NCBI GenBank assembly: GCA_045537895.1
Contig: JAZSQI010000022.1
Coordinates: forward strand, 19,290 to 83,289
DNA: 64,000 nt
Origin: Clostridia bacterium
Lineage (GTDB): Bacteria; Bacillota; Clostridia; TANB77; CAG-465
Reading direction: 5' to 3'
The notes under the pieces are model-generated. The model saw nothing but the letters and a program-made list of their open reading frames with translations. It was not told the origin of the DNA and did not search any database. The position numbers and the translations under genes are program-made. Shown piece by piece: positions 5,803 through 23,051 of the stretch; position 1 is the stretch's first letter, and every line of letters starts with the position of its first letter.

Positions 5803-6266
5803 AAGAAAAGTTTATGAAGGAGGCCTTAAAAGAGGCTAAAAAAGCAATGATTAAAGAAGAGGTTCCGGTTGGAGCTGTAATAGTACTTAATGATAAAATA
5901 ATAGCAAGAGCTCATAATTTAAGAGAAACAAAGAAAAATAGTTTGTGCCATGCAGAGATAATTGCAATAAATAAAGCTTGTAAGAAGCTTAATAATTTTA
6001 GACTAGAAGACTGTGAAATGTATATAACTATGGAGCCTTGTCTTATGTGTGCTGGCGCAATAGTTCAATCTAGAGTAAAAAAAATAATTATAGGAGCAAG
6101 AGACACTAAATATGGTATGGCAGGAACAGTTTTTAATGCATTTGAATTAAAAAGTAATCATAAGGTAGAAGTAGAAATAGGAGTATTGGAAGATGAATGT
6201 TCTAGTATAATAAAAGACTTCTTTAAACAGCTTAGACAAAATCATAAAAATAATAACAAAAAGTAA
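5799..6266 (+). CDS. tadA: tRNA adenosine(34) deaminase
   Basis: CHAEIIAI and PCLMCAGA zinc-binding motifs, 155 aa, 4-nt overlap with cwlD. Confidence 0.9.
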   Translation: MKEKFMKEALKEAKKAMIKEEVPVGAVIVLNDKIIARAHNLRETKKNSLCHAEIIAINKACKKLNNFRLEDCEMYITMEPCLMCAGAIVQSRVKKIIIGARDTKYGMAGTVFNAFELKSNHKVEVEIGVLEDECSSIIKDFFKQLRQNHKNNNKK

Positions 6267-6335
6267 TATATTGCATAGTATATAGTGTAAGAGAAATCTT
6301 ACACTATTATTTATTATAAATAAGGGAGTGCTAAT

Positions 6336-6761
6336 ATGTGTGGAATTAAAAATTGCGGATGTATAGCAGCAATTATAGGTATTGTGCTTGGAATAATAGT
6401 AGGAGTACTATTTTTCTTAGGAACAATAGCAGCTACAGCTATTGTTACACCAATAATAATAGCAGGCGTAATTGCAGCAGTTGTTCTACTTTTAGTTATT
6501 ATATTATTATCAATAGTTGAATTAAGAGAGGGCGCTACATTGCCAGTTTGTACTTGTAGAAATGTTATTGGGCTTGCAATTACAAGCATTATAACAATAG
6601 TAGCAACTATAGCTTCTTTTGCGATAACATTAGCATCAGGAAGTGTAGCTATAGCATTATTAATTGCAATAGGAGCAGGGGCATTTTTTGCAATGCTTAT
6701 ACTGTTACTTTGCTGGTTAGTATGTATAACTGAAAAAAACTGCAAGGCTATTCGCGATTAA
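6336..6761 (+). CDS. Small, very hydrophobic Cys-containing membrane protein
   Basis: RBS AGGGAG 7 nt upstream of the ATG and an intrinsic terminator just downstream. The mirror ORF on the minus strand has neither signal. Confidence 0.4.
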   Translation: MCGIKNCGCIAAIIGIVLGIIVGVLFFLGTIAATAIVTPIIIAGVIAAVVLLLVIILLSIVELREGATLPVCTCRNVIGLAITSIITIVATIASFAITLASGSVAIALLIAIGAGAFFAMLILLLCWLVCITEKNCKAIRD

Positions 6762-6764
6762 TTA

Positions 6765-6796
6765 AAAACCATTCATCTTTAGGTGAATGGTTTTTA
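6765..6796 (+). terminator. Rho-independent terminator
   Basis: AACCATTCA / TGAATGGTT stem followed by a T run. Confidence 0.6.
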
Positions 6797-6853
6797 ATTT
6801 TTATATATTAGTCAAAAATATAAAAATATGCAAGCTTAAAAGCTTGCGTTTGT

Positions 6854-6929
6854 TGGTGCTCCCGAGACGATTCGAACGTCCGACCAATAGTTTAGGAAAC
6901 TACTGCTCTATCCCCTGAGCTACGGAAGC
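6854..6929 (-). tRNA. tRNA-Arg(CCT)
   Basis: Hand-folded 76-nt cloverleaf: GCTTCCG/CGGGAGC acceptor, GCTC/GAGC D-stem, anticodon loop TTCCTAA, GGACG-TTCGAAT-CGTCT T-arm, encoded CCA. Confidence 0.9.
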
Positions 6930-7074
6930 ATAAATTAATTATATATTAATTCTCAAAAAAATCAATATATAGTAACATATTTACAGCACATGTTGTCATC
7001 TTTTTATAGTTTATTGCTTAATATAAATTTAAATGGTATAATTTTTGTATAATTTAAAAGTTGGAGGAATATAT

Positions 7075-9210
7075 ATGGGTTTAATAGAATGTCCTAAGTG
7101 TAAAAAGAAGAATACAGATGTAATAGACACATGTACACATTGTGGATATAATTTTTCTAAGATTCTAAAAAATGATAAATTATCATTAAGAAATGCAATT
7201 TTGACATCGTTGCAAGCAAATTTAGATTATGGTTATACATATTTAAATAGTAATGAATTAGATTATTCTGATGAAAAAAATTTTACAGCTACTATTTTAA
7301 ATAAAAAGATAGTAGTAACAAGCAGAGAGAAAAATAGTTTGAATTTAGTAAATTTGGTTACGGAGGCATCTGTAAAGGTAAAGCAAAAAGCAAATGAGCT
7401 TCGCATAAAGCAGTCACTACAGACAGATAATACAGGGGATGATTTACTAGAGTTTATAGATAAACTATCTAAATTGCTACTAGAATTTAATTCGGATATA
7501 GTTAAATACTTGATAGATGATGTTAAAATACCAGCTGATGAATTAGAACCGATTATTAATATTTTTACTGACTATTTAGATTTATATGTTGAAAAGTGCA
7601 AACAAAACCTAAACAACTTTATGATTAAGCATAGTCAAAATATTGAAAACTATACCAATAAATTATCGGCTATAAATTCTAATGCAGCAAAACAAGGGGC
7701 AGCCAATATAGGTGCAGCAATGGGTGGCTCTTCATTAATTGGAGCAATAGGTATGTTTGCCGCAAAAGGAGAACTTGAAGCAAAATCAGACCAAGCGAAA
7801 AATGATTTTAATCAGAAAACGAATCTAAATGTAAATATAACAACAACACAGTTTATAGCTTCATTTAGCCAGTTAATAGATGAATATTTAAAAGTGTTTT
7901 ATGAAACAGCTTTTAAAAAGTTTTCTATGTTTGACGAAGGTGTTCTGGATTCTACAAGTGATTTTTTTGATAAAGTTTATGATACAAAGAATATACTGAA
8001 TGTATTTGGTAAATTAAATAATGAAGAAAAAGAAGATATCAAAAAAATGATAGAATATATCGGAAAAGATAACTATTTAACTGAGCTATATGAACTAACA
8101 GATGAGGAAATAATAAAGTACTATGAAAAATATAATAATGATTCGTATGAATCTCCTAACTTAGAACTTTTAATGATGTTAACAGATAAAAGAGCAGACG
8201 ATTACAAAAAAATAGTGCTAGATAAATATATTCTAAAAAAATATGAGAATAATATTTATACATTAAAAGGGCAGAAAAAGTATATAAGTTTTAAACAAGA
8301 ATGTAGAAACTGTCGTAAAGAAATAGAAAATAATTTATATTTAAAAAACTCAAATAAAGAGATGCTTATAGAAAAAATTAATAATTTAGAAAATGAAAAG
8401 ATTACTAAACATAGAAACAAATTATTAATAATATTTGGCAGTATTACCCTGATTATTATGATTGCTATATGCATTATAATTGGCGCTGTTAATAAGAAAA
8501 ATAGCATAAATATAACAGGCAAGACATTTAGAGATGGGAATAACTATATAAAATTCTTAGATGAATATATAATCTTAGGTACTGAGCGTGATGATGGGCA
8601 TTATGAACTAGAAAAAATCGATTGCTCTATAACTTATGATTCAAATGAGGATGGACATGGTTATAGACATTACGTATGTGGTGATAAATTAGAATTCTAT
8701 ACATCTATTTTTGCTAACAGTAAATCGCTAGATATTGATTTTGAAGATGGGCAGAGAGGCTTGCTTTCATCTGGTGATTATACTTTTACAAGTATAGATT
8801 TAGACAAGGTTTCGAATATAGAAAAACAAATGGAACTTTGCGCTGATAAAGGTCGCTATTGTGATTATAAGATAGATAAAAATAAAATAACGGGTTATTA
8901 TATAAATGATACCGGAATATTATTTAAAATTGAAAGAGATGGAGAATATAACTTGTTGTATGAGGTTATAAGTACAGCACAATTAAGAAAATTAATAAAA
9001 GAAGATTTTGAATTTAAAGTTTCACGTGCTGAGTATTATAGCAATAAACTAAGCAATACAGGTAATAACTACACATTAGAATTATCGTGGAGGGCGCCGT
9101 ATAAAATAAACTTTACGATAGAGGATACTGTTATTAATATAAAAAAAGAAGATAATAGAGATTTAGATTCAAAATTCATAGGAAAATATTATAAGTATAA
9201 AGATCTTTAA
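7075..9210 (+). CDS. Zinc-ribbon, single-pass membrane protein of unknown function
   Basis: ATG at 7075 is preceded by GGAGGA. N-terminal CPKC..CTHC zinc ribbon, Gly/Ala-rich segment, TM helix LLIIFGSITLIIMIAICIIIGAV, then about 230 aa of C-terminal domain. Confidence 0.5.
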   Translation: MGLIECPKCKKKNTDVIDTCTHCGYNFSKILKNDKLSLRNAILTSLQANLDYGYTYLNSNELDYSDEKNFTATILNKKIVVTSREKNSLNLVNLVTEASVKVKQKANELRIKQSLQTDNTGDDLLEFIDKLSKLLLEFNSDIVKYLIDDVKIPADELEPIINIFTDYLDLYVEKCKQNLNNFMIKHSQNIENYTNKLSAINSNAAKQGAANIGAAMGGSSLIGAIGMFAAKGELEAKSDQAKNDFNQKTNLNVNITTTQFIASFSQLIDEYLKVFYETAFKKFSMFDEGVLDSTSDFFDKVYDTKNILNVFGKLNNEEKEDIKKMIEYIGKDNYLTELYELTDEEIIKYYEKYNNDSYESPNLELLMMLTDKRADDYKKIVLDKYILKKYENNIYTLKGQKKYISFKQECRNCRKEIENNLYLKNSNKEMLIEKINNLENEKITKHRNKLLIIFGSITLIIMIAICIIIGAVNKKNSINITGKTFRDGNNYIKFLDEYIILGTERDDGHYELEKIDCSITYDSNEDGHGYRHYVCGDKLEFYTSIFANSKSLDIDFEDGQRGLLSSGDYTFTSIDLDKVSNIEKQMELCADKGRYCDYKIDKNKITGYYINDTGILFKIERDGEYNLLYEVISTAQLRKLIKEDFEFKVSRAEYYSNKLSNTGNNYTLELSWRAPYKINFTIEDTVINIKKEDNRDLDSKFIGKYYKYKDL

Positions 9211-9320
9211 CAGACAATAATTAAGAATAATTCCATAAAGTAAATTGTGATTCTATGGGATTATTCTTTTTTGTAGATATTATATAGTGATGCATGATTT
9301 TAAAATTATTAGAGCACGTC

Positions 9321-9349
9321 TTGATTTATTTGCTATAACCTGTTATACT
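9321..9349 (+). promoter_or_regulatory. Sigma-A type promoter of the now-split host tRNA-Arg(ACG)
   Basis: TTGATT, 17 nt, TGtTATACT (extended -10), about 60 nt upstream of the tRNA 5' half. Confidence 0.45.
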
Positions 9350-9409: not shown

Positions 9410-9448
9410 GTACTCATAGCTCAATTGGATAGAGCGTTGGACTACGAA
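9410..9448 (+). pseudogene. 5' half of host tRNA-Arg(ACG): acceptor 5' strand, D-arm, anticodon stem 5' strand and loop
   Basis: GTACTCA TA GCTC AATTGGATA GAGC G TTGGA CTACGAA is followed by non-tRNA sequence. It pairs perfectly with the 3' half at 19693-19730. Confidence 0.75.
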
Positions 9449-9495
9449 ACACACTGACGATTCCATAGAAGTGCTAGTATAATTAAGTTATAGAG

Positions 9496-9530
9496 TTTGA
9501 ATTTTGGTGATTCCCCCAAAATTCCCCAAA
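9496..9530 (+). repeat. Left-end copy of the island-terminal direct repeat (TTGAATTTT..ATTCCCCAAAATTCCCCA)
   Basis: Imperfect direct repeat of 19505-19533. The ATTCCCCAAA unit is itself doubled. Confidence 0.6.
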
Positions 9531-9553
9531 TCAAACTTTATTTTAAAAAATAT

Positions 9554-9630
9554 GTAGCTGTAGCTTAACTGGATAGAGCCCTTGGCTACGAACCAAGAGG
9601 TTGCAGGTTCGAGTCCTGTCAGCTACACCA
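9554..9630 (+). tRNA. tRNA-Arg(ACG), island-borne complete copy
   Basis: 77-nt cloverleaf: GTAGCTG/CAGCTAC acceptor, CTTGG/CCAAG anticodon stem, loop CTACGAA, GCAGG-TTCGAGT-CCTGT T-arm, CCA. The stem sequences differ from the split host gene. Confidence 0.9.
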
Positions 9631-9631
9631 T

Positions 9632-9661
9632 CAAGTATATTTAAATATGCTTGATTTTTTT
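9632..9661. terminator. Hairpin terminator shared by the island tRNA and the convergent integrase gene
   Basis: CAAGTATAT-TTAA-ATATGCTTG followed by T8. Confidence 0.55.
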
Positions 9662-10931
9662 ATATGTCTAATTTGTCTAATTCTTGTTTTTTCCTTTCAT
9701 CCGATACATGAATATAATATTTTTTAGTAGTTGCTGGATCAGAATGTCCCATTAGCTTTTTTAATACTACATCAGATACTCCTTTTTCACTGCATAAAGT
9801 AGCAAAACTATGTCTTAAACCATAAGCAGTAATATTATCATCTAAATTATACTTTCTTCTAAATGATGGCATTTTTCTGCTCAAATTATCTGATATATAT
9901 GGCTCTCTTTTTTCATTTAGAAACACATAATCTGATTCTGACCATTTTCCCTTTATTTCTTTTAGCTCTGTCATTCTTTTTTCTTTAAGTTTTTCTAAAA
10001 GTCTTTTTAATCGTGGTCTTATAGGTATAGTTCTGTAACTATCAATAGTTTTTAATTCACTATCCTTACGAATTCTATTTATCACTATTAGATTTTCATC
10101 ATACTCTAATTCTTCTACAAATGAATTTTCAACTTTAATTATTTCATTATAAAAATCTATACTTTTCCATTTTAGACCACAACCTTCTTCTGGTCGCATA
10201 CCTGTTTGTAACAATGTAGCAAGTAATAATACCCATTCTCTTGCATCTTGTTCCATTATATTTAACCATTCTATTTGCTCTTTTTCTGATAAATGTTTAA
10301 TTTCTTTTCTTGACTCTTTTGGAAGTTCAATGTCTTTTATAGGATTTATAGTAATATAGTTTTGCTTTTTTGCATAGTCCATGCAAAACTTCATTACAAG
10401 AAAACAATCTCTTGCACATTTTCTACCAATATTTTTGCTGTCTATATAATCTTGAAACATTTTTCTAGTTATATTAGAAACATCCATTTGACCAAAAACA
10501 GGAACAAGATATGTTTTAATTGGCCTAACATACGATTCTAATGTCTTTGATGCTATTCTTTTGCCAACATCCTTTTGTTTTTCCATTATCCAACCTTTTG
10601 CTATATTAACAAATTTTGTTGTAGTATTTACTTTATCTACTATTTCTTTTTGGAATTCAGTACCTGTATATTCTCTCATACTTACAAGTTTTTCATTACA
10701 TTCTTCTATTATACTCATTTTAGAAATATTATTTTTTCTTCTAGCCTCTATATGAGCATCAATTATAGCTTCTTCTAATTTTTTCCTAGCCTCCTTTTCT
10801 GATATGGAACTATACTTTGATAACCTTAATGTATTATCATCTATAATTATGGTTATTCTTGCCTCATAACCACCTGATTTTTTCCTTATACTGATAGTTC
10901 CTTTTTTAGCTCTTTCTTTTATCTTATTCAT
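9660..10931 (-). CDS. int: Tyrosine-type site-specific integrase
   Basis: C-terminal catalytic signature LRHSFATLC ... LMGHSDPATTKKYYIH, N-terminal SAM-like/arm-binding region, located next to a tRNA. Confidence 0.9.
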   Translation of the reverse strand: MNKIKERAKKGTISIRKKSGGYEARITIIIDDNTLRLSKYSSISEKEARKKLEEAIIDAHIEARRKNNISKMSIIEECNEKLVSMREYTGTEFQKEIVDKVNTTTKFVNIAKGWIMEKQKDVGKRIASKTLESYVRPIKTYLVPVFGQMDVSNITRKMFQDYIDSKNIGRKCARDCFLVMKFCMDYAKKQNYITINPIKDIELPKESRKEIKHLSEKEQIEWLNIMEQDAREWVLLLATLLQTGMRPEEGCGLKWKSIDFYNEIIKVENSFVEELEYDENLIVINRIRKDSELKTIDSYRTIPIRPRLKRLLEKLKEKRMTELKEIKGKWSESDYVFLNEKREPYISDNLSRKMPSFRRKYNLDDNITAYGLRHSFATLCSEKGVSDVVLKKLMGHSDPATTKKYYIHVSDERKKQELDKLDI

Positions 10932-10947
10932 TTTATTTCCTCCTTAC

Positions 10948-11000
10948 AAAAAAGAAGTTATAAAATAATTCAATGACACTATTATTATAACTTCTTTTTT
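10948..11000 (-). promoter_or_regulatory. Perfect 16-bp-stem hairpin between the xis-like gene and int (possible attenuator or terminator)
   Basis: AAAAAAGAAGTTATAA (10948-10963) and TTATAACTTCTTTTTT (10985-11000). On the minus strand it is followed by a T run and then the int RBS. Confidence 0.45.
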
Positions 11001-11023
11001 CTATTAAAGTCTAATAATTATAG

Positions 11024-11209
11024 TTAATAATTGTATTTTCCATAATTATTTGAAATCCATTTTTGTAAATTATTTTTATCAATTATTATTTTCCTTTTAA
11101 ACTTTATACAGGGGAATCCCTCTGTCTTTACAAGTTCTAACATCAGATTTCTTCCAATGCCTAAAAGCTTTCTAGCTTCATCTATACCTATATATTCTTT
11201 TTGTTCCAT
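11024..11209 (-). CDS. xis: Excisionase-type (MerR/HTH_17-like) small DNA-binding protein
   Basis: 61 aa. IDEARKLLGIGRNLMLELVKTEGFPCIKFKRKIIIDKNNLQKWI matches the helix-turn-helix excisionase pattern. Lies directly upstream of int. Confidence 0.65.
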   Translation of the reverse strand: MEQKEYIGIDEARKLLGIGRNLMLELVKTEGFPCIKFKRKIIIDKNNLQKWISNNYGKYNY

Positions 11210-11376
11210 CTATTTACTCCTTAATCTATATGTTTTTTTCTAAGGTATAAGTTGAATTTGAATTATCTTAACATTCACATAGGGATTTGCCCCCTCTCCG
11301 CTTGCAACCGAGCAACTCCTCAGCATCACACTAAGCCAAGTTGAAGTATCATTATTTTGTCTTATACCTATCTATG

Positions 11377-11392
11377 ACACCTATATAGGTGT
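11377..11392. promoter_or_regulatory. Perfect 16-bp palindrome ACACCTATATAGGTGT upstream of xis-int (candidate operator)
   Basis: The sequence is exactly self-complementary and sits in the 400-bp region upstream of xis. Confidence 0.4.
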
Positions 11393-11612
11393 ATTTGTCA
11401 ATGTGCAAGTGAAAGTATCACTACCTTTCACTTACTTAAACTCTTAAAGAATAGATAGTCGGACAAAAATACAAAAAAATTTAATAATTTATTGAAAAAA
11501 CAATTAATAATATTAAAATAGTGTTGGAAATAACAATAAAAAATAAAGAGGTTATCCACATTATCAACAATGTGTAGCCTCTTTATCTACTTTATATATA
11601 CTTCGTATAATA

Positions 11613-12728
11613 TTAATCTGGATATATTTCTCCTTTAATCATTATACTTTCTACTTTTGAGCCATTATTTTTCATACGACTAATTCCCATGTCAGAACCA
11701 CCCACAAAATAAACATAATCATCTATTAAGTCATAGTCGTGTACTCTTTCTGCTATTATTTGTTTTTCATTTTTACCATTTATATCTATTTTATATAGTT
11801 TATTTCCCATATCAGTTTTATAATAAATATAATTGTTTGTCATTTGATATTCTTCTATGTATTCATCTATAATTAATTTTTCATTTTTTCCATCTAAATC
11901 AGTTTTATATAGTTTACCTGACTTTAAGTAGAAAATGCTATCATTATGAACAACCAAATCACTCATATTTCCTGTTTCAATTATTTTACTTTCATTACTG
12001 AAATTTATATCTGAAACATATAATCCTTGTTCGTATACATCTGAGAATACAGAAGAATCAGTTGTACTTATTTTGTTATAATATACTTTATCTTTATACA
12101 TATACATTTCTCCAATACCTTTTATTATTAGGGTATCATCTTTATCTTGATTATATTTATATAAGTTTGCTTCATTATGGCTCTTTGCAGGAAGACCATA
12201 TTCATCCACTTCATCTATAATTTCTACTATGGTATTATAATAAATATCATTATTTATTACACCAAAAAACAATTTAGCTGAGTCTATAATTTTTGTATCA
12301 GAAAATACCGCAGTAGTTTGATTATAATCTTGTTTCTTTAAATCAATAGGGTAAATTGCTTTTTTATTTCCAGAACTAGCCGATACATATAATATATTGT
12401 CTTTTTCAAATTCTATTTTAGGTGTTTGTCTTAATATTTGAGTTTTATTTCCTTTACTGTCTAACCTTATAATTTGATTACCATCACCATAATTTTTATA
12501 ATATACTGCATTACTTCCTTTATATGCAATCCTTGAATTAGTTGAATTTTTTATTCCATTACCAATATACTTATCTATCTTATTAGAATTGCTTTCTGTT
12601 TTGTTACCTACGCTTGTCGTTTTGTCTACTTCTGATGTATTATCTTTCATCAATATCGTTGACACAACAATTCCACTTATAATAACTACTACAAGTATAA
12701 TTATTCCTATTATCACACTTTTTTTCAT
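11613..12728 (-). CDS. Membrane-anchored DUF5050-like beta-propeller repeat protein
   Basis: N-terminal TM anchor, then repeated units of the type IYY.., GKLYKTDLDGKNEKLI and NKLYKIDINGKNEKQI. Confidence 0.5.
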   Translation of the reverse strand: MKKSVIIGIIILVVVIISGIVVSTILMKDNTSEVDKTTSVGNKTESNSNKIDKYIGNGIKNSTNSRIAYKGSNAVYYKNYGDGNQIIRLDSKGNKTQILRQTPKIEFEKDNILYVSASSGNKKAIYPIDLKKQDYNQTTAVFSDTKIIDSAKLFFGVINNDIYYNTIVEIIDEVDEYGLPAKSHNEANLYKYNQDKDDTLIIKGIGEMYMYKDKVYYNKISTTDSSVFSDVYEQGLYVSDINFSNESKIIETGNMSDLVVHNDSIFYLKSGKLYKTDLDGKNEKLIIDEYIEEYQMTNNYIYYKTDMGNKLYKIDINGKNEKQIIAERVHDYDLIDDYVYFVGGSDMGISRMKNNGSKVESIMIKGEIYPD

Positions 12729-12744
12729 ATGTAACCTCCATTAT

Positions 12745-13686
12745 TTATCCTATATTACTATCTATTACAATATTAGCTACTATATCTTCTGCCATTCTTT
12801 TAACAAATGTCAAAGTATTTATTGTATCCTCATATTGTTTTTTATCAATAGCTTTTCCCATATCAAAATTAAATATTGTTTTTTGATGAAATCTTATATA
12901 TAGCTTGTCATTATTTATAGCAATATCAAATCCAATATTATAAATTTTATTTTTCATTTCTAAAAGTTTTTCCATTTTATCAGCTGTTAATATTTGCCTA
13001 GCTATTATTTCATTTGTTGCAGAAACATTAAATATCTCTTCAAATTCTCGCATATCCAGCTCAATTTTATTACTTTTTACTTCATTTCCTGTTATATTGA
13101 TTCTGGCATTAGTATTAAAGGGAAGATTTATTACTCCTACTAATCCACCAAAAAGTTGTTCAGTTCTAGTTTCTAAATGGTCATTATGGTCATAGTAACT
13201 TACTTCGTGATAAGTAAAAACATTTGCCAACTTTAATTTATAACCTTCTGGATTAATTGGTATTTCTGTCAAACCGTGTGAAGAATACTTGTCCCAATCA
13301 TATTCTTCATTATCACTTACTATATTATAGTCTGAATTTTCTATTCCATTTGTAACATCACTACTGGCATCTCCAAAAATCCTTTTTAATAAAGGTGTTA
13401 TTATTTTTTCATTAAGCAAACTTATATAATTTCCATCATCACTTTTATATTGCTTTACTTCTAGTTCATGAACATGCTTAAATAGCAGAATATCCCAGAT
13501 TAAACAAAAAGGGAATAAAGGTAGCGTAATAATTACTAAAATAAATATTAATACTTTTTTTACTGTTAATTTTTTTTCGTTTTTCCTATGTTCCATATAA
13601 ACTTGCATAGGTTCCTCTAAGCTTTTTATATTTTGATTATATATTTCATCAAATATTTCGAAAAAATTATACTCCATTAAATTCAC
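12745..13686 (-). CDS. DUF3137-like membrane protein (usual LemA partner)
   Basis: TM hairpin VLIFILVIITLPLFPFCLIWDILLF followed by a soluble domain. Starts 10 nt after the LemA stop. Confidence 0.45.
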   Translation of the reverse strand: MNLMEYNFFEIFDEIYNQNIKSLEEPMQVYMEHRKNEKKLTVKKVLIFILVIITLPLFPFCLIWDILLFKHVHELEVKQYKSDDGNYISLLNEKIITPLLKRIFGDASSDVTNGIENSDYNIVSDNEEYDWDKYSSHGLTEIPINPEGYKLKLANVFTYHEVSYYDHNDHLETRTEQLFGGLVGVINLPFNTNARINITGNEVKSNKIELDMREFEEIFNVSATNEIIARQILTADKMEKLLEMKNKIYNIGFDIAINNDKLYIRFHQKTIFNFDMGKAIDKKQYEDTINTLTFVKRMAEDIVANIVIDSNIG

Positions 13687-13695
13687 CTCCCACTT

Positions 13696-14403
13696 TTAAA
13701 CATTCACAACATTTCTTTCTTCTGGTTTTGCTTCAAAAAGATTTTGCTCTCTATATCCAAATATATTAGCTACTATGGAATTAGGGAATTTTTTAATTAG
13801 TATATTATATTCTGTAACTTGCATATTATATGTTCTTCTAGCTGCTTGAATTTGATTCTCCATTCTAGCCAGTTGTTTTTGTAAGTCTAAGAAATTTTCG
13901 TTTGCTTTTAACTCTGGATATGCCTCAATTCTAGCAATAAGATTGTTATATTCATTATCCAAATCCGATTTAGCAATTACATTTTTTTCGTTAATATCAA
14001 ATTCTGTTCTTAATTTTATTATACTTTCAAGTGTTTCTTTTTCATAATTAGAATATGCTTTTACTGTTTCAACTAGATTTGGTATTAAATCAAATCTTTG
14101 TTTTAAATATACATCAATACTGCTCAAAACATTTTCAAATTTTTCTTTTAACGATACTATTTTATTATACAGTTTTATTATATTAATAATTAATATGATT
14201 ATAACAGTTATAGCCAATATTAATAATTTGCTTCCAACATATTCAAAGAACATCTTGTCGTAGTAAAAATTCAAAAATTCACCATCTGAAAAATCATCTA
14301 ACCTGCTTATCTCTTCCTTATATTGCACATAACCCATAAACACCGAGTAAACTACCATCAAAACAAGTGCCCATACTATAACCGAACCTACACTTTTATT
14401 CAT
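13696..14403 (-). CDS. lemA: LemA family protein (island copy, with N-terminal extension)
   Basis: [44 protein letters not shown] and FPNSIVANIFGY motifs. Has two N-terminal TM segments, whereas the core paralogue has one. Confidence 0.85.
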   Translation of the reverse strand: MNKSVGSVIVWALVLMVVYSVFMGYVQYKEEISRLDDFSDGEFLNFYYDKMFFEYVGSKLLILAITVIIILIINIIKLYNKIVSLKEKFENVLSSIDVYLKQRFDLIPNLVETVKAYSNYEKETLESIIKLRTEFDINEKNVIAKSDLDNEYNNLIARIEAYPELKANENFLDLQKQLARMENQIQAARRTYNMQVTEYNILIKKFPNSIVANIFGYREQNLFEAKPEERNVVNV

Positions 14404-14515
14404 ATTTCACCTCCACTTACAATATTAAAAAAATTCTATCACAAACATATGGGTAATGCAAGTATCTTATTTGTAAAATACTTATAAGATAAAATAGCAA
14501 AAGGGAGTGAATATA

Positions 14516-14740
14516 ATGATTAAATTCAATATACCAAATTTACTTAAAAGAAAAAACAAATCTAAATATTGGCTATGCCAAAAAATGAATATTACTTCTA
14601 GAAATATAAATAGATTAATACGTGGAGATACAACTTCTATATCCTTTAAGTATTTAGAACAATTTTGTTATTATCTTGATTGTACTCCTGAAGAACTTAT
14701 AACAATAGAATTTGAACCTGAAACTTATGATAATAATTAA
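14516..14740 (+). CDS. XRE/Cro-type helix-turn-helix regulator, divergent from the LemA operon
   Basis: ATG at 14516 lies 9 nt after AAGGGAG. SKYWLCQKMNITSRNINRLIRGDTTSISFKYLEQFCYYLDCTPEELI is HTH_26-like. Hairpin terminator at 14741-14783. Confidence 0.6.
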   Translation: MIKFNIPNLLKRKNKSKYWLCQKMNITSRNINRLIRGDTTSISFKYLEQFCYYLDCTPEELITIEFEPETYDNN

Positions 14741-14856
14741 AAACACATTAACTAGTTTTGATGATACTATTAATGTGTTTTTATTTTAAAATTATTATTT
14801 ATTTTGATATTTAAATTCACTATTTTTACTTCCTTTTATTTCGTAGAGCAAGAATA

Positions 14857-14944
14857 GTTGTCAGACAGACAACCTTTAACAGCTTGAAAGCAGAGCTTCC
14901 AACAGGTATGACACACATATTTTTGTCTGCTATTTGTCAGACAA
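14857..14944. promoter_or_regulatory. Cluster of GACA/TGTC-type palindromes in the intergenic region
   Basis: GTTGTC-AGACA-GACAAC (14857-14873), GACA-N10-TGTC (14910-14927), TTGTC-A-GACAA (14934-14944). Confidence 0.35.
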
Positions 14945-15023
14945 GTTATTAAAGTAATTTTCTAATAAAATATCTAGTAATTCAAAAAATTCATAATCAT
15001 TATTAAATCTATATTTGTATTTT

Positions 15024-15490
15024 TTATATATTTTTTTTGGATAGCTTTCCTGTGAATTTGTCTTTTGTTTTTCCATTTATTATTTCAAATACATTATCTT
15101 TTGTTATTGTGCCATACACTTCTCTTAATTTTTTTGCTTGTGCCATTGTAAGTTTAATATTTGTTTCTTCAATTATTTCATTTACTATCTCTTGCTCTTC
15201 TTGTTTTAAATATGAAAGTTCTACACCCACCATTACTCCTAATATGTCATTATTTACTTTATGTTTTAAATCAGCAGTTAACTCTGTAAGCCTAATAAAT
15301 CGTTGAATAGTAGCTCTACTATCTTCACTTCATTTGCTAATTTTTCTACTGAATAATCCTCCTGCTCAATTTGAGCAGTTGACTCACAAGTATTGGTATC
15401 ACTAGATTTCTCTTAATTTTCTTTTTTAACTTTTTTAATCAATTCTAGTTGTTTTTTATATGCTAAACCTTTCTCACAAGGCAAAATATT
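15024..15490 (-). pseudogene. ParB-like (mobile-element type) gene remnant: 5'-truncated, with an in-frame stop and a frameshift
   Basis: Hand translation gives ILPCEKGLAYKKQLELIKKVKKEN*..DYSVEKLANEV(frameshift)EDSRATIQRFIRLTELTADLKHKVNNDILGVMVGVELSYLKQEEQ.. The N-terminal ParB nuclease domain is absent. Only the last 69 aa form an ORF. Confidence 0.55.
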
Positions 15491-15518
15491 TTTGTTTATC
15501 TCCCTTATATTATATTTA

Positions 15519-16811
15519 TTACCACCAATCAAAATATGATGTGCTTATATTTAATTCTTTTTCTTTGTCCTCTTTACTTGCTTCGTGGTTTCTTTTTCCA
15601 AGCAATTCGTCCTCAACATCTATGTTAGGATCAAACCAATCTGCTTTTTGAGTTGCCCACTCTATCCAAGCTTTGGTGTCTTCATCTAAATTATTACTTG
15701 ATGAAACAGCCGCTATATAATTTCTAATATCACATGCAATTCTATAGTCTTCTGCTATGTTTAGTAATTTTTTAATATTATTTGCCTCTGTTATTTTTCT
15801 GTTTTTTATTTCTTCTTTTCGTCTTTTTTCTTCTTGGTATATTCTTTCTCTTTCTTCTTGTTCTAACCTTGCAACCTTAATTTGTTCTGATTTTTCATAC
15901 AATTTAATTATTATATCTCGTACTTTTTCTTCTAATTTAATACTGTCTGTTTCTTTTATATAATTTCTATTTCCAAATATTATTTTTAACTTCCCATTAT
16001 AAATATAATCATATTTTCTTATATTGGGTTTATACGCATATCTATTCCACTTCTTTTTATCTTCATACTCTAATAATTGTCTAGCTTCTTCTTTTGTCAA
16101 TTCGTGGTCTACTTGATTTTTTAATTCTTCTATTTCTATCGTAACTATTTCATTACGTATTTGCATTGAAAAATCATTATTCACCTTACCTCCAAGATCT
16201 TCTATTATATAATAAACTAAACTTAAAAGCCTCATAGCTCTTGTTTTTTCAAGTTTTGAAATATTTGAAAAATATCCAGTTTCAACATAATTACGTATAC
16301 TATAATTAGGGTTATAGTAATTGATCTTTCTTTCCTCTCTACGTTCTTCTTGTATTTTGTTTTTATATTCTGAGATTATCTTATGCATTCTTTTATGATT
16401 ATTAATAGATATATTATCAAGTGACTTTATAACTTTTTTTCGTTCATCCTCAGTCAAAAAAACTAACACATTATTTTCTATTTTGTTTGAAATCTTATTA
16501 TCTTCTTTTATAGTGTCTATTTTTTTGTCTGGAATACTTTTTGTTCCCTTCAAACATAACTTAACTTCGTTTGATTCAAAATCAGGCAATTGGATAATCT
16601 CATCACTAACATCTAACCCCATCTTTTTTCTAGTCCAGTAGCCAGATGTAGGATATGGAATATTGTTTTCTTTACAAACTTTAACCAATTTTGAATAGCT
16701 AAGATTATACTTTTTTGAAACGCCCATTAATGATATTTCCCATATTTCATTATAAAGTTGTTCTCTAGTCATTACAAGCAAGTCAATCATTACAAATTTC
16801 TCTCCCTTCAT
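15519..16811 (-). CDS. Hypothetical protein with an HTH-like N-terminus and a long E/K/R-rich coiled coil
   Basis: 430 aa. N-terminus is REQLYNEIWEISLMGVSKKYNLSYSKLVKVCKENNIPYPTSGYWTRKKMG. No catalytic motif recognised. Confidence 0.5.
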   Translation of the reverse strand: MKGEKFVMIDLLVMTREQLYNEIWEISLMGVSKKYNLSYSKLVKVCKENNIPYPTSGYWTRKKMGLDVSDEIIQLPDFESNEVKLCLKGTKSIPDKKIDTIKEDNKISNKIENNVLVFLTEDERKKVIKSLDNISINNHKRMHKIISEYKNKIQEERREERKINYYNPNYSIRNYVETGYFSNISKLEKTRAMRLLSLVYYIIEDLGGKVNNDFSMQIRNEIVTIEIEELKNQVDHELTKEEARQLLEYEDKKKWNRYAYKPNIRKYDYIYNGKLKIIFGNRNYIKETDSIKLEEKVRDIIIKLYEKSEQIKVARLEQEERERIYQEEKRRKEEIKNRKITEANNIKKLLNIAEDYRIACDIRNYIAAVSSSNNLDEDTKAWIEWATQKADWFDPNIDVEDELLGKRNHEASKEDKEKELNISTSYFDWW

Positions 16812-16865
16812 ATTTTTTATCGTTATCCTTATATTTTCCTAGCGAAAATGCATACTCAAATAACT

Positions 16866-17210
16866 CTAAATCTCTTGTTTTGCATTTTCGCTTAATATAA
16901 AAAGCAAATCATTTTTTAATGATTCAAATTCCTTAATAATAGTCCCCAAATTGTTTTCTATATTTTGAACTCGAATCTCTGATATTCTTCCATATTTATA
17001 CGCTATCATTCTTTCAGCTATAATATGATAAGACCAACTTTCGGAATAAAGTTTATCCTTTTCTTCATTATGAATTGCAAAACCAATTGGCAATAAATTG
17101 TTTTTTAATCCCATAGTTACTGCCATTGCAGAAATCCCCAAATAGTCTCCTGCAATTTTACAAGTGATTTTTGACATGTTTCTAATGTCTTCATCTGTAT
17201 ATTTACTCAT
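16866..17210 (-). CDS. Small phage/ICE-type HTH-like protein
   Basis: 114 aa. IAGDYLGISAMAVTMGLKNNLLPIGFAI resembles small DNA-binding proteins of mobile elements. RBS GGGGG upstream. Confidence 0.4.
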   Translation of the reverse strand: MSKYTDEDIRNMSKITCKIAGDYLGISAMAVTMGLKNNLLPIGFAIHNEEKDKLYSESWSYHIIAERMIAYKYGRISEIRVQNIENNLGTIIKEFESLKNDLLFILSENAKQEI

Positions 17211-17302
17211 AAATACCCCCTAGAATAATTAGTCAATTTATTATTGCTAATTTTGTTTATAATATATCATATATTTTTTGTATTATCTACATATTTCATT
17301 TT

Positions 17303-17320
17303 GTATTACACTTGTAATAC
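17303..17320. promoter_or_regulatory. 18-bp palindrome GTATTACA-CT-TGTAATAC upstream of the 114-aa gene (candidate operator)
   Basis: Inverted repeat seen directly. It lies between the SWIM-gene terminator hairpin (about 17369-17410) and the 17210 start. Confidence 0.35.
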
Positions 17321-17416
17321 GATTAGCAAGTTGATAATTTTAAGTAAAAACCTACTTATAAGCAAAACAACAGTATCTCTTATCTAAAATTAGAGTTACT
17401 GTTGTTATTTTTTAAT

Positions 17417-17908
17417 TTATTTTATTATACGAAAAATATTCATATTGTTCATAGTTCTTAAATCTGTATATATATTTTCATTATCTATTGCAATGTCTTT
17501 AATATATTGTTTTAATTGCTCTTCTGAAATATTAGCTAAATACTTTTCTATATCTTTTGTTCTTTTTGCAATTTGTTTTTCAATATCTTTATCTGTAACT
17601 ATATCTTCTAAATTTTGTTCTATGTATATTAGAGTTGCTGCCATATGTTTACAATAGCTCCCAGCTTCTGCATATGGACAATTACAATACATATCTTCAA
17701 TTTCATTATCTTTTATTTCTATTCTTACATTATATGGATAAGTTCCTTCAACAGTGGAATAAAAATTCCCTTTTCTTTTACAAACATCTTGAACTCTATC
17801 TTCGTAAAAATAGTCTAAACCTCTTTCAAAAATCACATCATCAAAAAATTCTAGTGCTGATTCGTGTATACTATTTCTCAATTTAGAATTTGAACTATAT
17901 CTTGGCAT
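17417..17908 (-). CDS. SWIM zinc-finger protein
   Basis: CNCPYAEAGSYCKH (CxCx8CxH). 163 aa. Starts 25 nt after the upstream ATPase stop. Confidence 0.7.
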   Translation of the reverse strand: MPRYSSNSKLRNSIHESALEFFDDVIFERGLDYFYEDRVQDVCKRKGNFYSTVEGTYPYNVRIEIKDNEIEDMYCNCPYAEAGSYCKHMAATLIYIEQNLEDIVTDKDIEKQIAKRTKDIEKYLANISEEQLKQYIKDIAIDNENIYTDLRTMNNMNIFRIIK

Positions 17909-17933
17909 AGTTTTACCTCTCTTAATTATATTC

Positions 17934-19205
17934 TTAAATATATTCTATAGGAACAAAATATTTATTATCTTCTACTGCAAATATTTCATCTATCATGCAA
18001 AGTACAATTCCATCTCCAACTTCTAGTCCAAACTTATCCACAACATCGAAGTTTTTGAAAGCAGTTTTTCCAGGGTTTGCACTTTTCTTTATTTCTACAG
18101 GATAAACTTTATTATCATAAATTATTAATAAGTCTATTTCCTTTGCATTACTATCTCTATAATAATATAGTCTCATTCTAGGACTCATACCATTGTTAGT
18201 AAATGTTTTTATTATCTCACTAACTACATATGTTTCAAATATAGCACCATTGTATGCACTTTTTTCTAATGTTTCAGCATTTAAATAACCTGTTAAATAA
18301 CAAGCAAGACCTGTATCCATAAAATATATCTTTGGTCTTTTAATTGCTTTTTTAACATTATTATTAGAGTAAGATTGTAACATATATATAAGGTTGGTAT
18401 TTTTAAGAATAGATACCCATTCATCAATTGTTTTACTATCTACTCCTACATCTGTTGCTATATCACTTACGTTATATTCTTGAGCAGTTCTTGCAGCAAC
18501 AGAAGATATAAATCTAAAAAATTTATTTTCATCTTTTACATTTATTAGTTGTCTTACATCTCTTTCGATATATGTTCTAATATATGTTTCATAAAATGCT
18601 GATGTTTTTGTCTCATCTATTTTCCCATTTACAACTTCTGGGTAACTACCATTTAATATTCTTTCAAATAATTTCTTAGTAGATAGTTTTTTTACTTTTA
18701 CTTTTTCTTTTAAAGTTTTAACATCAGGAATAAATATTGTTTCTTCTACGCCTTCTAATTCTCGTGTAGAAAAGCCATACAAATCCAGTATTCCCATTCT
18801 TCCTGCAAGTGATTCACTAACATTAGCCATTGTTTGAAATACTTGTGAACCAGTTAAGAAATACATTGTTTCTAATTCTTTACCATTACCAAACATTGAA
18901 TTTTTTCTTGCTTCATCTACTTTTATTTTTATATATGACAATAGCTGGGGAGCATACTGAAACTCATCTATTATTACTGGAGCTTCATATGTTCTTAAAA
19001 ATAATTCTGGATCTTCTATTGCTTGCTGTCTTACTAGCAGATTATCTAATGATACATAATTTATTTTTCTATTAGAACTAACTGCAAAATAATTTAGCAA
19101 TGTTGTTTTTCCAACCTGTCTTGGTCCTGTTACCATTATAACAGGGAACTTTGTTATTAAAGACTGTATACTCTTTTCTATTGTTCTTGCTTTATATTTT
19201 TCCAT
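17934..19205 (-). CDS. AAA_14-type ATPase with C-terminal DUF4143 (PD-(D/E)xK-like) domain
   Basis: Walker A VTGPRQVGKTT, Walker B VIIDEFQ, C-terminal EIDLLIIYDNKVYPVEIKKS nuclease-like motif. Confidence 0.85.
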   Translation of the reverse strand: MEKYKARTIEKSIQSLITKFPVIMVTGPRQVGKTTLLNYFAVSSNRKINYVSLDNLLVRQQAIEDPELFLRTYEAPVIIDEFQYAPQLLSYIKIKVDEARKNSMFGNGKELETMYFLTGSQVFQTMANVSESLAGRMGILDLYGFSTRELEGVEETIFIPDVKTLKEKVKVKKLSTKKLFERILNGSYPEVVNGKIDETKTSAFYETYIRTYIERDVRQLINVKDENKFFRFISSVAARTAQEYNVSDIATDVGVDSKTIDEWVSILKNTNLIYMLQSYSNNNVKKAIKRPKIYFMDTGLACYLTGYLNAETLEKSAYNGAIFETYVVSEIIKTFTNNGMSPRMRLYYYRDSNAKEIDLLIIYDNKVYPVEIKKSANPGKTAFKNFDVVDKFGLEVGDGIVLCMIDEIFAVEDNKYFVPIEYI

Positions 19206-19259
19206 CTTAACACCTCAATATAAGTGTAACACAAAAACAATATTCTGTCTAGTACTTTT

Positions 19260-19294
19260 TAGAGAAATATGGAGTTTAACTCCATATTTCTCTA
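19260..19294. promoter_or_regulatory. 35-bp near-perfect palindrome upstream of the ATPase gene
   Basis: TAGAGAAATATGGAGTT-T-AACTCCATATTTCTCTA. Confidence 0.4.
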
Positions 19295-19380
19295 AATTCT
19301 ACATTTTTTGCAAATTACTACTTTTTAATTTTGATTTTCTATATGTGTACATTTGTATTATTATATATATATTATTATAG

Positions 19381-19450
19381 GGGACATTTTTGTCCCTACC
19401 CTGAGGACATTTTTGTCACCACCCCTAGGGACATTTTTGTCTATACCCCT
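19381..19450 (+). repeat. Three tandem 22-24-bp direct repeats, each containing GACATTTTTGTC
   Basis: GGGACATTTTTGTCCCTACCCT / GAGGACATTTTTGTCACCACCCCT / AGGGACATTTTTGTCTATACCCCT. Confidence 0.7.
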
Positions 19451-19481
19451 ATGTCATTAATATTTTATAACTTCTTTTATC

Positions 19482-19533
19482 AAAATTGGGGAATGACTGT
19501 TTGACTTGAATTTTATTCCCCAAAAATTCCCCA
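19482..19533 (+). repeat. Right-end copies of the island-terminal repeat (one inverted, one direct)
   Basis: AAAATTGGGGAAT (19482-19494, inverted) and CTTGAATTTTATTCCCCAAAAATTCCCCA (19505-19533, direct copy of 9496-9530). Confidence 0.6.
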
Positions 19534-19685
19534 GTTTTTCTAAATTTTATTAACTTTTATCAAACTTTTTTAAATTTTATTAAACTATATTAAATTTTTA
19601 TAAAATGTTTGTAATTCAGTATTTTAAGCATTTGTGTTGATTTTTACCTGTTTTACCATTAAATCAATTTTGCCATTTGGTGCCT

Positions 19686-19730
19686 CTACGAATCCAAAGG
19701 TTGAGGGTTCGACTCCCTCTGGGTGCACCA
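19686..19730 (+). pseudogene. 3' half of host tRNA-Arg(ACG): loop copy, anticodon stem 3' strand, variable loop, T-arm, acceptor 3' strand, CCA
   Basis: CTACGAA TCCAA AGGTT GAGGG TTCGACT CCCTC TGGGTGC A CCA. It complements the 5' half at 9410-9448. Confidence 0.75.
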
Positions 19731-19733
19731 AAG

Positions 19734-19759
19734 GCAAGTAATAGTTACTTGCTTTTTTT
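19734..19759 (+). terminator. Native terminator of the split tRNA-Arg
   Basis: GCAAGTA-ATAG-TACTTGC followed by T7. Confidence 0.55.
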
Positions 19760-19954
19760 GCGCATGAAAACACACATGACTAAAAATGGTAAAAAATACC
19801 TGCATGTCGATTAATGCTCAAAAAAGGCACTTTGTGTCAAAATAAAACTGATAGTTTTGTAAAAACAGCGTATCGTCATTTTATATTTTGCACAAAATAT
19901 AGTAGTATATATATAAACACTCATAGAGTGATAGCTTCTTTGGAGGTAAAATAT

Positions 19955-22852: not shown

Positions 22853-23051
22853 AAAGAAAATATTTTTGAGACTATCTGGGAAATATGTAAACTAAAATGT
22901 TGAAGGATGGTAGTATTGTTTGAAAAAAAGATTTGTAACGGGTAACAATTAAATATAAAACTAAGTTGATTTTACATAATAAAATCAATTTGGTTTTTTG
23001 TCGCCTTAAGCAAGTTTTTATGTAAATATTTATAATGTGGGGGGATTTATA

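Follow-up and report, generated by a model that had tools for sequence, protein, structure and literature searches.

The locus analysed here raises the question of what becomes of a host tRNA gene when an integrase-bearing island enters its anticodon loop and neither end of the island rebuilds it. The window, a stretch of 64 kb, contains the two halves of one tRNA-Arg(ACG) gene at 9410-9448 and 19686-19730, which have only the 7 nt CTACGAA in common, and a second, complete tRNA-Arg(ACG) that lies between them. It is highly probable that the island entered the anticodon loop of the host tRNA-Arg(ACG) through the action of its own tyrosine integrase, and that it supplies a complete replacement tRNA.

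The split host gene and its empty site

The features that belong to the host gene are as follows.

9321 to 9349, + strand: promoter-like site of the host tRNA-Arg(ACG) gene, TTGATT-17-TATACT with TG
9410 to 9441, + strand: severed 5' half of the host tRNA-Arg(ACG) (acceptor 5' strand, D arm, anticodon-stem 5' strand)
9442 to 9448, + strand: left copy of the 7-bp crossover core CTACGAA (anticodon loop)
19686 to 19692, + strand: right copy of the 7-bp core CTACGAA
19693 to 19730, + strand: severed 3' half of the host tRNA-Arg(ACG) (anticodon-stem 3' strand, variable loop, T arm, acceptor 3' strand, CCA)
about 19730 to 19760, + strand: original terminator of the host tRNA gene, hairpin and U7, with an equivalent hairpin after the intact tRNA in L087 and L085

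Neither ARAGORN nor Rfam calls a tRNA at either junction, in agreement with the sequence-only reading, which had found none rebuilt there. In-silico deletion of 9449-19692 yields a tRNA-Arg(acg) called by ARAGORN, and this is the 77-nt cloverleaf, its 7/7 acceptor pairs including two G-U, that had been proposed for the halves joined through one CTACGAA. Loci L085 and L087/L088 come from two close relatives (RpoB 96-97% identical) with the same gene order and without the island. In L085, L087 and L088 the syntenic empty site holds an intact, contiguous tRNA-Arg(acg), exactly where the crossover inside the 7-nt anticodon loop had been placed. L087 7228-7266 matches window 9410-9448 at 100% (blastn; 39/39 including the core), and L087 7260-7306 matches window 19686-19732 at 97.9% (46/47 including the core), the sole mismatch of the right half being a G to A change in the T stem. 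The two matches overlap by exactly CTACGAA, which upholds the claim that nothing else is duplicated. Covariance-model support applies to the intact L087 tRNA (Rfam tRNA, 65.1 bits); the joined tRNA of the window is one base off it and is called by ARAGORN alone.

The promoter proposed at 9321-9349 is confirmed as promoter-like, and a matching site, TTGATT-17-TATAAT, is kept upstream of the intact tRNA in L087. The hairpin terminator proposed 3' of the right half is also present, as a hairpin followed by a U-run at about 19730-19757. The 5' half retains the promoter-like site and the 3' half the terminator, and the host gene is left split between them. GC skew reverses exactly at both junctions. 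The left junction runs on into ACACACTGACG, and its identity to the intact tRNA stops after 7 nt. The anticodon stem-loop of the host tRNA-Arg(ACG) serves as attB, the common core is the 7-nt loop CTACGAA only, and attP is without a usable 3' half; the host tRNA gene therefore remains split.

The split could also be a metagenome assembly artefact, a chimeric contig joined via tRNA-like repeats, since the window apparently comes from a metagenome-assembled contig and the integrase cluster lists a single 90-kb contig. This is very improbable: the repeat at the junctions is 7 nt only, too short for assembler error, the flanks on both sides are collinear with relatives, and the arrangement is seen again in dozens of assemblies made independently, one of them a hifiasm chromosome (L056; OZ006978.1). 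Still more remote is the idea that the halves make a working tRNA in trans, as the split tRNA genes of Nanoarchaeum do. The halves are almost undecayed against the relatives, in keeping with such a function, but tRNA genes evolve slowly, so the lack of decay says little. On direct reading, the sequences next to the halves, 9449-9460 (ACACACTGACG) and 19675-19685 (TTTGGTGCCT), are not complementary, and the 3' half has no promoter-like site immediately before it. We know of no bacterial machinery for joining tRNA halves in trans.

The integrase module and the carried tRNA

Insertion by the island's own integrase into the host anticodon loop is the reading followed from here, and the module that would carry it out is made up of the following features.

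9449 to 9553, + strand: P' arm of the island, a 105-nt spacer that holds the arm-type repeat TTCCCCCAAAATTCCCC and a promoter-like site
9454 to 9483, + strand: promoter-like site CTGACG-18-TATAAT in the P' arm
9554 to 9630, + strand (same orientation as the host gene): complete island tRNA-Arg(ACG), CCA encoded (ARAGORN; Rfam tRNA 66.1 bits)
9630 to 9662, + strand: hairpin and U7 terminator after the island tRNA (9630-9655: -10.3 kcal/mol, z -4.15)
9660 to 10931, - strand: tyrosine integrase, 423 aa, in convergent orientation to the island tRNA (PF00589, 1.2e-25; also SAM-like and central domains)
11024 to 11209, - strand: Xis-like small HTH_17 protein (PF12728; PHROG excisionase family), 67-75% identical in related elements
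11277 to 11355, - strand: pemK RNA motif, RF02913 (Rfam), on the strand of the xis-like gene and int and upstream of both (39.1 bits, gathering score 34.8)
19381 to 19458, + strand: three tandem repeats of about 23 nt (GGGACATTTTTGTC...) in the P arm
19516 to 19532, + strand: P-arm arm-type repeat TTCCCCAAAAATTCCCC, 154 nt before the right core

Alignment of the integrase with 21 homologues shows R246, R373, H396 and Y405/Y406 to be invariant and K272 nearly so; Y405/Y406 are the candidate nucleophiles. Its nearest solved structures are the integrases 3nkh and Tn1549 Int (6en0). The Xis-like HTH_17 protein is likely the directionality factor, and the pemK RNA motif also stands upstream of xis-int in the related locus L001 (53.4 bits). 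The arm motif TTCCCC-N5-TTCCCC occurs only twice in the 64 kb, at the island ends, with 0 copies expected, and the copy at 9511-9527 lies at the same position in the spacers of five related elements. The attP arms that flank the core (TTTGGTGCCT / ACACACTGACG) barely resemble the host anticodon stem, so core-type binding sites are not evident. A circular junction of the window's island was not found in public collections.

The island tRNA begins 105 nt past the crossover, between the P' arm and int, and differs from the host tRNA in its acceptor, anticodon and T stems; the ARAGORN and Rfam calls bear out the complete, different tRNA-Arg(ACG) that had been described there. The further claim that this tRNA shares its terminator with int is not convincingly supported: the hairpin at 9630-9655 has a U-tract on the + strand only and is a terminator for the tRNA. 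The promoter-like site in the spacer shows no conservation in related elements, and promoter-like matches are not above shuffle expectation. ARAGORN finds no other tRNA-Arg(acg) in the window.

The course of events can be proposed as follows. Int would bind the arm sites at 9511-9527 and 19516-19532 and exchange strands over the 7 bp of the loop, the arms of the anticodon stem serving as putative core sites. The Xis-like protein would direct excision, upon which the host gene would be restored precisely. The island tRNA may be transcribed by read-through from the host tRNA promoter, from the spacer site, or from both, and its transcript would probably end at the hairpin at 9630-9655. Once TadA edits A34 to I, the island tRNA would take over the decoding of CGU, CGC and CGA. 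With a whole tRNA carried along, the element would need only the CUACGAA loop and no match to the host acceptor or anticodon stems.

Related loci in gut Clostridia

The census comprised 60 loci in which a related integrase (35-53% identity) adjoins a complete tRNA-Arg(ACG) called by ARAGORN. The complete tRNA stands in the same place beside int in all 60 of these ARAGORN-positive loci, and a severed tRNA-Arg 5' half lies 109-156 nt upstream in 49 of them, all from uncultured gut Clostridia. Six related loci are without a severed half, among which at least L009 looks either conventionally restored or secondarily deleted. The remaining Clostridial loci with related integrases lie on short or cut contigs, match the integrase only in part, or have Lys(CTT) as the adjoining tRNA. 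Both junctions are present in five loci, where the joined halves form valid tRNAs and the elements measure 6.6-10.5 kb.

The nearest relative of the integrase has 48% identity, and the stretch int-tRNA-130 nt-TTCGTAG is identical in L001-L004. After TTCGTAG, L001 and L003 continue into the 5' half of a host tRNA, whereas L002 and L004 continue into non-tRNA arm sequence; as read from the sequence, the two kinds of junction match attL-type and attP-type forms, respectively. These forms bear on two other explanations. One holds that this is a conventional tRNA-restoring island in which 9554-9630 is the regenerated host gene and the half-tRNAs are unrelated debris; a tRNA convergent with int and about 30 nt from the int stop is indeed the usual picture of a restored target. 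In L002 and L004, however, the complete tRNA goes along with the element at the attP-type junction, the stems of the island tRNA depart from those of the host tRNA, and the intact tRNA of the island-free relatives matches 9410-9448 plus 19686-19730 and not 9554-9630. The tRNA at the locus in these relatives contradicts the restoring explanation, which retains hardly any probability. The other is a transposon whose 7-bp target-site duplication fell by chance in the anticodon loop, as the 7-nt direct repeat around the insert might suggest. Transposase was not found, the ends read as free of terminal inverted repeats, the island has genes for Int and a Xis-like protein, and the same site is used in 49 loci. 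The attP-type junctions of relatives already contain CTACGAA, so that it is a common core instead of a copy generated upon insertion; a transposon is contradicted by these attP forms and is exceedingly improbable.

Site-specific insertion into the loop also agrees with the range of targets. One element lineage (spacer start ACGCACACCC) is present in tRNAs with seven different anticodon stems, and only two of the tRNA-Arg(ACG) genes and halves compared depart from the CUACGAA loop. There are also nested arrays, in which later elements have inserted in the tRNAs of earlier ones. In the family alignment of the carried tRNAs 99.8% of cells are paired, with double changes in 16 of the 21 pairs; when partners were slid by 1-3 columns as a control, only 37.5-48.8% were paired. 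The carried tRNAs retain their cloverleaf through strong compensatory covariation.

The main competitor accepts the insertion as described and takes the island tRNA as a dispensable passenger, the host having other tRNA-Arg(ACG) genes so that nothing is replaced. It is unlikely, though it deserves more weight than the other alternatives: 64 kb of the genome is in view, and many Clostridia have several copies of a tRNA. Against it stand the constant presence of a complete tRNA beside int in the related loci, and the upkeep of its fold by compensatory changes despite low integrase identity and wholly different cargo. The insertion of later elements in the tRNAs of earlier ones fits those copies being a live target. 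In the one experimentally tested system, moreover, the carried tRNA is required (PMC10865867).

Cargo and comparison with known systems

With one core copy counted, the island measures 10,244 bp (9442-19685), and its cargo region as a whole spans 11613-19205.

11613 to 12728, - strand: DUF5050
12745 to 13686, - strand: DUF3137
13696 to 14403, - strand: LemA
14507 to 14740, + strand: XRE regulator
15024 to 15233, 15519 to 16811 and 16866 to 17210, - strand: proteins without an assigned family
17417 to 17908, - strand: SWIM protein
17934 to 19205, - strand: AAA/DUF4143 ATPase, matching the candidate defence family PDC-S01 (1.8e-108)

This cargo is not common to related elements; that of L048, for example, is metabolic. 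The cargo yielded no match to phage structural, replication or conjugation families. The PHROG matches of the island are only regulators, the excisionase-like protein and a LemA-like match annotated as a virion structural protein. As PHROG reveals no capsid, tail, terminase or lysis genes in the island, and IMG/VR no close relatives of its integrase, the island is not a temperate phage.

Anticodon-loop crossover is reportedly class I in the sublocation scheme of Williams (2002), with HP1 and phage 16-3 as examples. As in classical tRNA-restoring islands of the Islander type (PMC4383910), the tyrosine integrase adjoins a tRNA, the displaced 3' fragment (here 19686-19730) marks the far end, and the crossover falls in a 7-nt anticodon loop flanked by the symmetric anticodon stem. 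Unlike the window's island, which brings a whole separate tRNA, classical islands have the 3' part of the tRNA in their attP, and the gene is regenerated at attL. The sequence-only reading had set the broken gene against the restoration normally achieved by tRNA-targeting integrases; the gene is indeed broken here, but 'always restore' is outdated, a non-restoring strategy having been published (PMC10865867).

That strategy is already known as tRNA-dependent lysogeny, described by Guerrero-Bustamante and Hatfull (mBio 2024) in actinobacteriophages/mycobacterial phages, namely Fionnbharth/K4, cluster L, Cain/K6, BrutonGaster, OneUp, Mollymur and Gaia (PMC10865867), and the present analysis extends it to a large family of islands in gut Clostridia that are not phages. 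Shared features are a tyrosine integrase with flanking arm-type sites, an attB within a host tRNA gene, a core too short to rebuild the tRNA (8-17 bp in the phages, 7 bp here), and the occurrence of restoring and non-restoring members in one integrase family, the contrasts here being L009 and the Lys(CTT) subgroup. The hosts are Clostridia instead of Actinobacteria, the tRNA is Arg-ACG instead of Lys-TTT, Ile2-CAT or Leu-CAA, and instead of phages there are small islands whose cargo varies. Here the att-int module itself contains the tRNA, co-oriented and at 105-156 nt from the crossover, whereas Fionnbharth has its tRNA at a separate genomic location, where it overlaps gene 37 and has a promoter of its own (PMC10865867). 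The requirement for the tRNA is experimental in the actinobacteriophages (PMC10865867), and here we infer it. The integrases matched here are all from Clostridia or, distantly, Acidobacteriota, and kinship with actinobacteriophage integrases is not expected. The prophage Lj965 of Lactobacillus johnsonii and prophages like Mesorhizobium phage Lo5R7ANS are also cited as leaving the target tRNA unrebuilt and as encoding tRNAs that could compensate (PMC10865867, PMC3714127, PMC12429752); they differ from the window's island in being prophages, and the literature describes them in passing only.

What is new here is the occurrence in non-phage islands, the compact xis-int-tRNA-attP cassette with a bare 7-bp anticodon-loop core, and the nesting of elements in each other's replacement tRNA, in which they also depart from the phages of tRNA-dependent lysogeny. 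Taken jointly, the observations tilt slightly towards an undescribed and widespread family of cargo islands with a portable cassette of this kind, a tRNA relay and a Lys(CTT) transition branch. If so, the cassette would be largely independent of host tRNA sequence, needing only the CUACGAA loop of the host tRNA-Arg(ACG). Newcomers would insert into the replacement tRNA of the previous occupant and pass the tRNA supply between elements (the 'tRNA relay'), and nested arrays would record the order in which elements arrived. The tRNA-Lys(CTT) sister branch with its decaying 3' half would represent an evolutionary intermediate between repairing the target tRNA and replacing it. In the Lys(CTT) subgroup the 3' half is full but degenerate, and L058 and L059 retain a vestige of a former 3' half, CCGGAAGGTCAA.

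Split host tRNA gene and its empty site

ARAGORN analysis of the window revealed a complete tRNA-Arg(acg) at 9554-9630 and called no tRNA at 9410-9448 or 19686-19730. An Rfam scan at a permissive E-value similarly recorded 9554-9627 as a tRNA (66.1 bits) and gave no tRNA match at either half site. Direct reading of the two sites yields the halves of a host gene, both of which contain the anticodon loop CTACGAA (the core):

9410-9448, host 5' half and core: GTACTCATAGCTCAATTGGATAGAGCGTTGGA-CTACGAA
19686-19730, core and host 3' half: CTACGAA-TCCAAAGGTTGAGGGTTCGACTCCCTCTGGGTGCACCA

When 9449-19692 was deleted in silico, ARAGORN called a 77-nt tRNA-Arg(acg) cloverleaf, and the sole tRNA in the simulated circular junction was the island's own. 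Both flanks have a positive GC skew, which turns negative between ~9500 and 19500; strand composition thus also marks the insert.

Exact scans of genome and metagenome contig collections for the predicted empty-site 31-mer gave no match because the window and its relatives differ by one base (G/A) in the T stem; the site itself is not absent. Homologues of RpoB (window 23037-26729) with 96-97% identity were used to reach the contigs of these relatives, which are devoid of the island and have the following gene order in common with the window:

CwlD-like amidase, TadA-like deaminase, 140-aa protein, tRNA-Arg(cct) on the minus strand
then tRNA-Arg(acg) on the plus strand, XRE regulator, two Gate-domain proteins, rpoB/rpoC

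By blastn, positions 7228-7266 of one such contig (L087) match window 9410-9448 at 100%, and positions 7260-7306 match window 19686-19732 at 97.9%, the only difference being G to A in the T stem. The two matches overlap by exactly 7 nt, CTACGAA. The intact tRNA of L087 scores 65.1 bits against the Rfam tRNA model, and the promoter-like TTGATT-17-TATA(A/C)T and the tRNA terminator hairpin are present in the window and relatives alike. The sequence-only reading had proposed, as its main test, that island-free relatives without a contiguous tRNA at this locus would speak against it; in the syntenic contigs L085 and L087 the tRNA is contiguous and intact, so the test favours the finding. Its observation of a split tRNA accompanied by a complete island copy is confirmed by ARAGORN, Rfam, the in-silico repair and the empty site, and its interpretation of a tRNA-splitting island is supported. 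Conventional restoration, transposon target duplication, an assembly artefact and halves joined in trans were also considered as readings of the locus and rejected.

The tadA-like gene (window 5799-6266) lies ~3 kb upstream of the tRNA-Arg(ACG) gene, a linkage kept in L085 and L087; this tRNA is the normal substrate of the deaminase TadA. Further variability of the locus is seen in L085, where an inserted HD-domain gene (6280-6924) separates the intact tRNA-Arg(acg) from the XRE gene. A segment of ~2.3 kb (window 6968-9250) with an orphan 721-aa ORF (7045-9210) is missing from both relatives, in which the distance from tRNA-Arg(cct) to tRNA-Arg(acg) is only 90-250 nt. The ORF gave no Pfam/NCBIfam match and no homologue at 1e-30, and the segment appears to be a separate insertion, unrelated to the island, into this tRNA hotspot.

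Integration module and cargo of the island

All island genes except one are on the minus strand. The main features are:

9511-9527, first copy of the arm motif, 63 nt inside the left junction
9660-10931, minus strand, tyrosine integrase (PF00589, 1.2e-25, with SAM-like and central domains)
11024-11209, minus strand, 61-aa HTH_17 protein matching excisionase families
19516-19532, second copy of the arm motif, 154 nt inside the right junction, oriented as the first
Cargo: DUF5050, DUF3137, LemA, XRE regulator, three unassigned proteins, SWIM protein, AAA/DUF4143 ATPase

The motif TTCCCC-N3-6-TTCCCC occurs in exactly 2 copies in 64 kb, with 0 expected, and the two copies are read as putative arm-type sites for the integrase, one in the P' arm (left island end) and one in the P arm (right island end). 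The island tRNA is placed between the P' arm and int, co-oriented with the broken host gene, and folding reveals a hairpin and U7 directly after it. Both tRNA terminator hairpins were missed by a simple terminator scan and confirmed by folding, while promoter scans gave match counts equal to the shuffle expectation in AT-rich DNA and are hence uninformative. The predicted attP of the island is GGTGCCT-CTACGAA-ACACACTG; its predicted circular junction, GGTGCCTCTACGAAACACACTG, was not found in metagenome or viral collections. The P arm also contains, upstream of its arm-type site, three ~23-nt repeats in tandem (GGGACATTTTTGTCCC..., 19381-19458), an array that might bind Xis or some other factor. 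On the minus strand at 11277-11355, Rfam RF02913 marks a pemK RNA motif with a score above the gathering threshold, upstream of xis-int, and again upstream of xis-int in a relative with 48% identity (L001, 9358-9433); it may be a cis-regulatory element for the excision and integration genes.

Among the cargo, a match to the candidate defence family PDC-S01 (1.8e-108) was obtained for the AAA/DUF4143 ATPase, and a partial one to PDC-S62 for the adjoining SWIM zinc-finger protein; the pair (17417-19205, minus strand) may be defence cargo of the island. Family and domain searches gave no assignment for the 430-aa and 114-aa proteins, and no capsid, tail, terminase, lysis, replication or conjugation family was matched by the island proteins.

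Related elements and their tRNAs

The window integrase has distant relatives only, the nearest being 48% identical. The nearest-relative element is represented by 4 contigs with an identical int, a complete convergent tRNA-Arg(acg), 130 nt and then TTCGTAG. In L001 and L003 a different tRNA-Arg 5' half follows in reverse complement, and in L002 and L004 non-tRNA sequence with GGGGAAA repeats; the two arrangements match the predicted attL and attP forms, respectively, of one element.

A family scan, in which the integrase alignment was run against one genome per species, gave 80 loci; uncultured Clostridia from the gut of rabbit, mouse, human and chicken account for ~65. In the census of loci from the nearest-relative contigs and the family scan, the core was sought 95-170 nt away. 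A complete tRNA-Arg(acg) adjoins int at 60 loci, and at 49 of these a severed tRNA-Arg 5' half ending in CTACGAA lies 109-156 nt upstream. Junctions of an attP-like kind are present at 3/60, contig ends cut 2/60, and 6/60 have no core within 95-170 nt, among them L024, which has a severed half at longer spacing. Both junctions are present in five loci, where the elements measure 6.6-10.5 kb and the joined halves form a valid tRNA-Arg(acg) in every case (5/5). Only xis and int are common to the window island and the related elements, the cargo being different, and an IMG/VR search revealed no close relatives.

In five loci (L009, L028, L047, L049 and L063) a host-like promoter directly precedes the complete tRNA, and no severed 5' half is present. 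At the far end of L009 there is a displaced 3' half identical to that of the complete tRNA. Such loci could have arisen by restoration of the conventional kind, or by a secondary deletion running from the host 5' half to that of the element.

The gap-free alignment of 24 distinct island-borne tRNAs displays standard pairs in 99.8% of cloverleaf cells, which drops to 37.5-48.8% in the control with 3' partners slid by 1-3 columns. Both-sided changes are recorded at 16 of 21 pairs, with covariation at all acceptor (7/7) and anticodon-stem (5/5) pairs. No variation is seen in the anticodon loop CTACGAA or at A20 of the D loop; the ArgRS and TadA determinants of tRNA-Arg are among these features. 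As judged from the alignment, the carried tRNAs are under selection.

Mode of integration and relation to known systems

The island has the anticodon stem-loop as attB and a common core of 7 bp, regenerates no tRNA, and carries the cognate tRNA within its att-int module. Tyrosine integrases of several actinobacteriophage clusters, with 8-17-bp cores, direct tRNA-dependent lysogeny at tRNA-Lys-TTT, Ile2-CAT or Leu-CAA genes; the gene is left unrebuilt and viable integration needs the phage tRNA (PMC10865867). Lactobacillus prophage Lj965 is a possible case outside Actinobacteria according to the same authors (PMC10865867), and the idea is mentioned for prophages in other papers too (PMC12429752, PMC3714127). 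The window island displays four defining features of this system and differs in one, phage nature. The literature searched contained no account of tRNA-dependent integration in non-phage islands or in Clostridia. The mechanism is of a known kind; the setting and arrangement are new.

In the proposed mechanism, Int bound to the arm sites would exchange strands across the anticodon loop, and the HTH protein would direct excision, leading to exact repair of the host gene. Transcription of the island tRNA would start at the host promoter (9321-9349) and run on across the 5' fragment and the spacer. Alternatively, it may start from a spacer site (9454-9483, CTGACG-18-TATAAT), a promoter-like sequence not conserved in relatives.

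Among the severed halves, 35 distinct sequences and 15 versions of the anticodon-stem strand were counted, and one element lineage (spacer ACGCACACCC), to which the window spacer ACACACTGACG is most similar, occupies seven different anticodon stems. This diversity of host stems provides a rationale for carrying a whole tRNA, since a host-5'/element-3' hybrid would often mismatch. A sister branch with 33% integrase identity (L042-L044, L046 and L050) targets the anticodon loop of tRNA-Lys(CTT) and also carries a full tRNA-Lys(CTT) copy. Its attP (L046 being the attP-type junction) keeps a degenerate 3' half, so that ARAGORN calls a hybrid tRNA at attL; with some host 5' halves this 3' half forms mispairs, a direct instance of the mismatch. 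In two further loci (L058, L059), only CCGGAAGGTCAA is left of the former 3' half. These observations fit a route that leads from repair to replacement and has the window at its far end, and the family offers a natural series of attP sites from restoring to non-restoring.

The strategy is hereby extended from a few actinobacteriophage clusters to non-phage islands of another phylum, elements abundant in the gut metagenomes of animals and humans. Should a cell have no tRNA-Arg(ICG) other than the carried one, its reading of CGU, CGC and CGA depends on a mobile element; losing this tRNA without precise excision would then be lethal, a toxin-free stabilisation. Island finders that seek a regenerated tRNA and a displaced fragment will mis-call these elements. 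The compact cassette (int, xis, tRNA and ~300 bp of att arms) is a possible integration tool for poorly tractable Clostridia. The principle will not surprise a specialist; the family size, compact cassette, 7-bp core and nesting merit focused study.

Nesting is evident in L008, which has two tandem 5' halves; the second shows full identity to the corresponding half of an L022-type element's carried tRNA and is followed by the spacer of an L007-type element. In L060, the second half is the 5' half of that element's own tRNA, leader included; L014, L033 and L043 are arranged similarly, and in L045 the tandem is joined at attR. The match of second halves to the residents' carried tRNAs indicates that newcomers insert into a resident's replacement tRNA, and the arrays show competition of elements for a single 7-bp site. 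The window contains one element.
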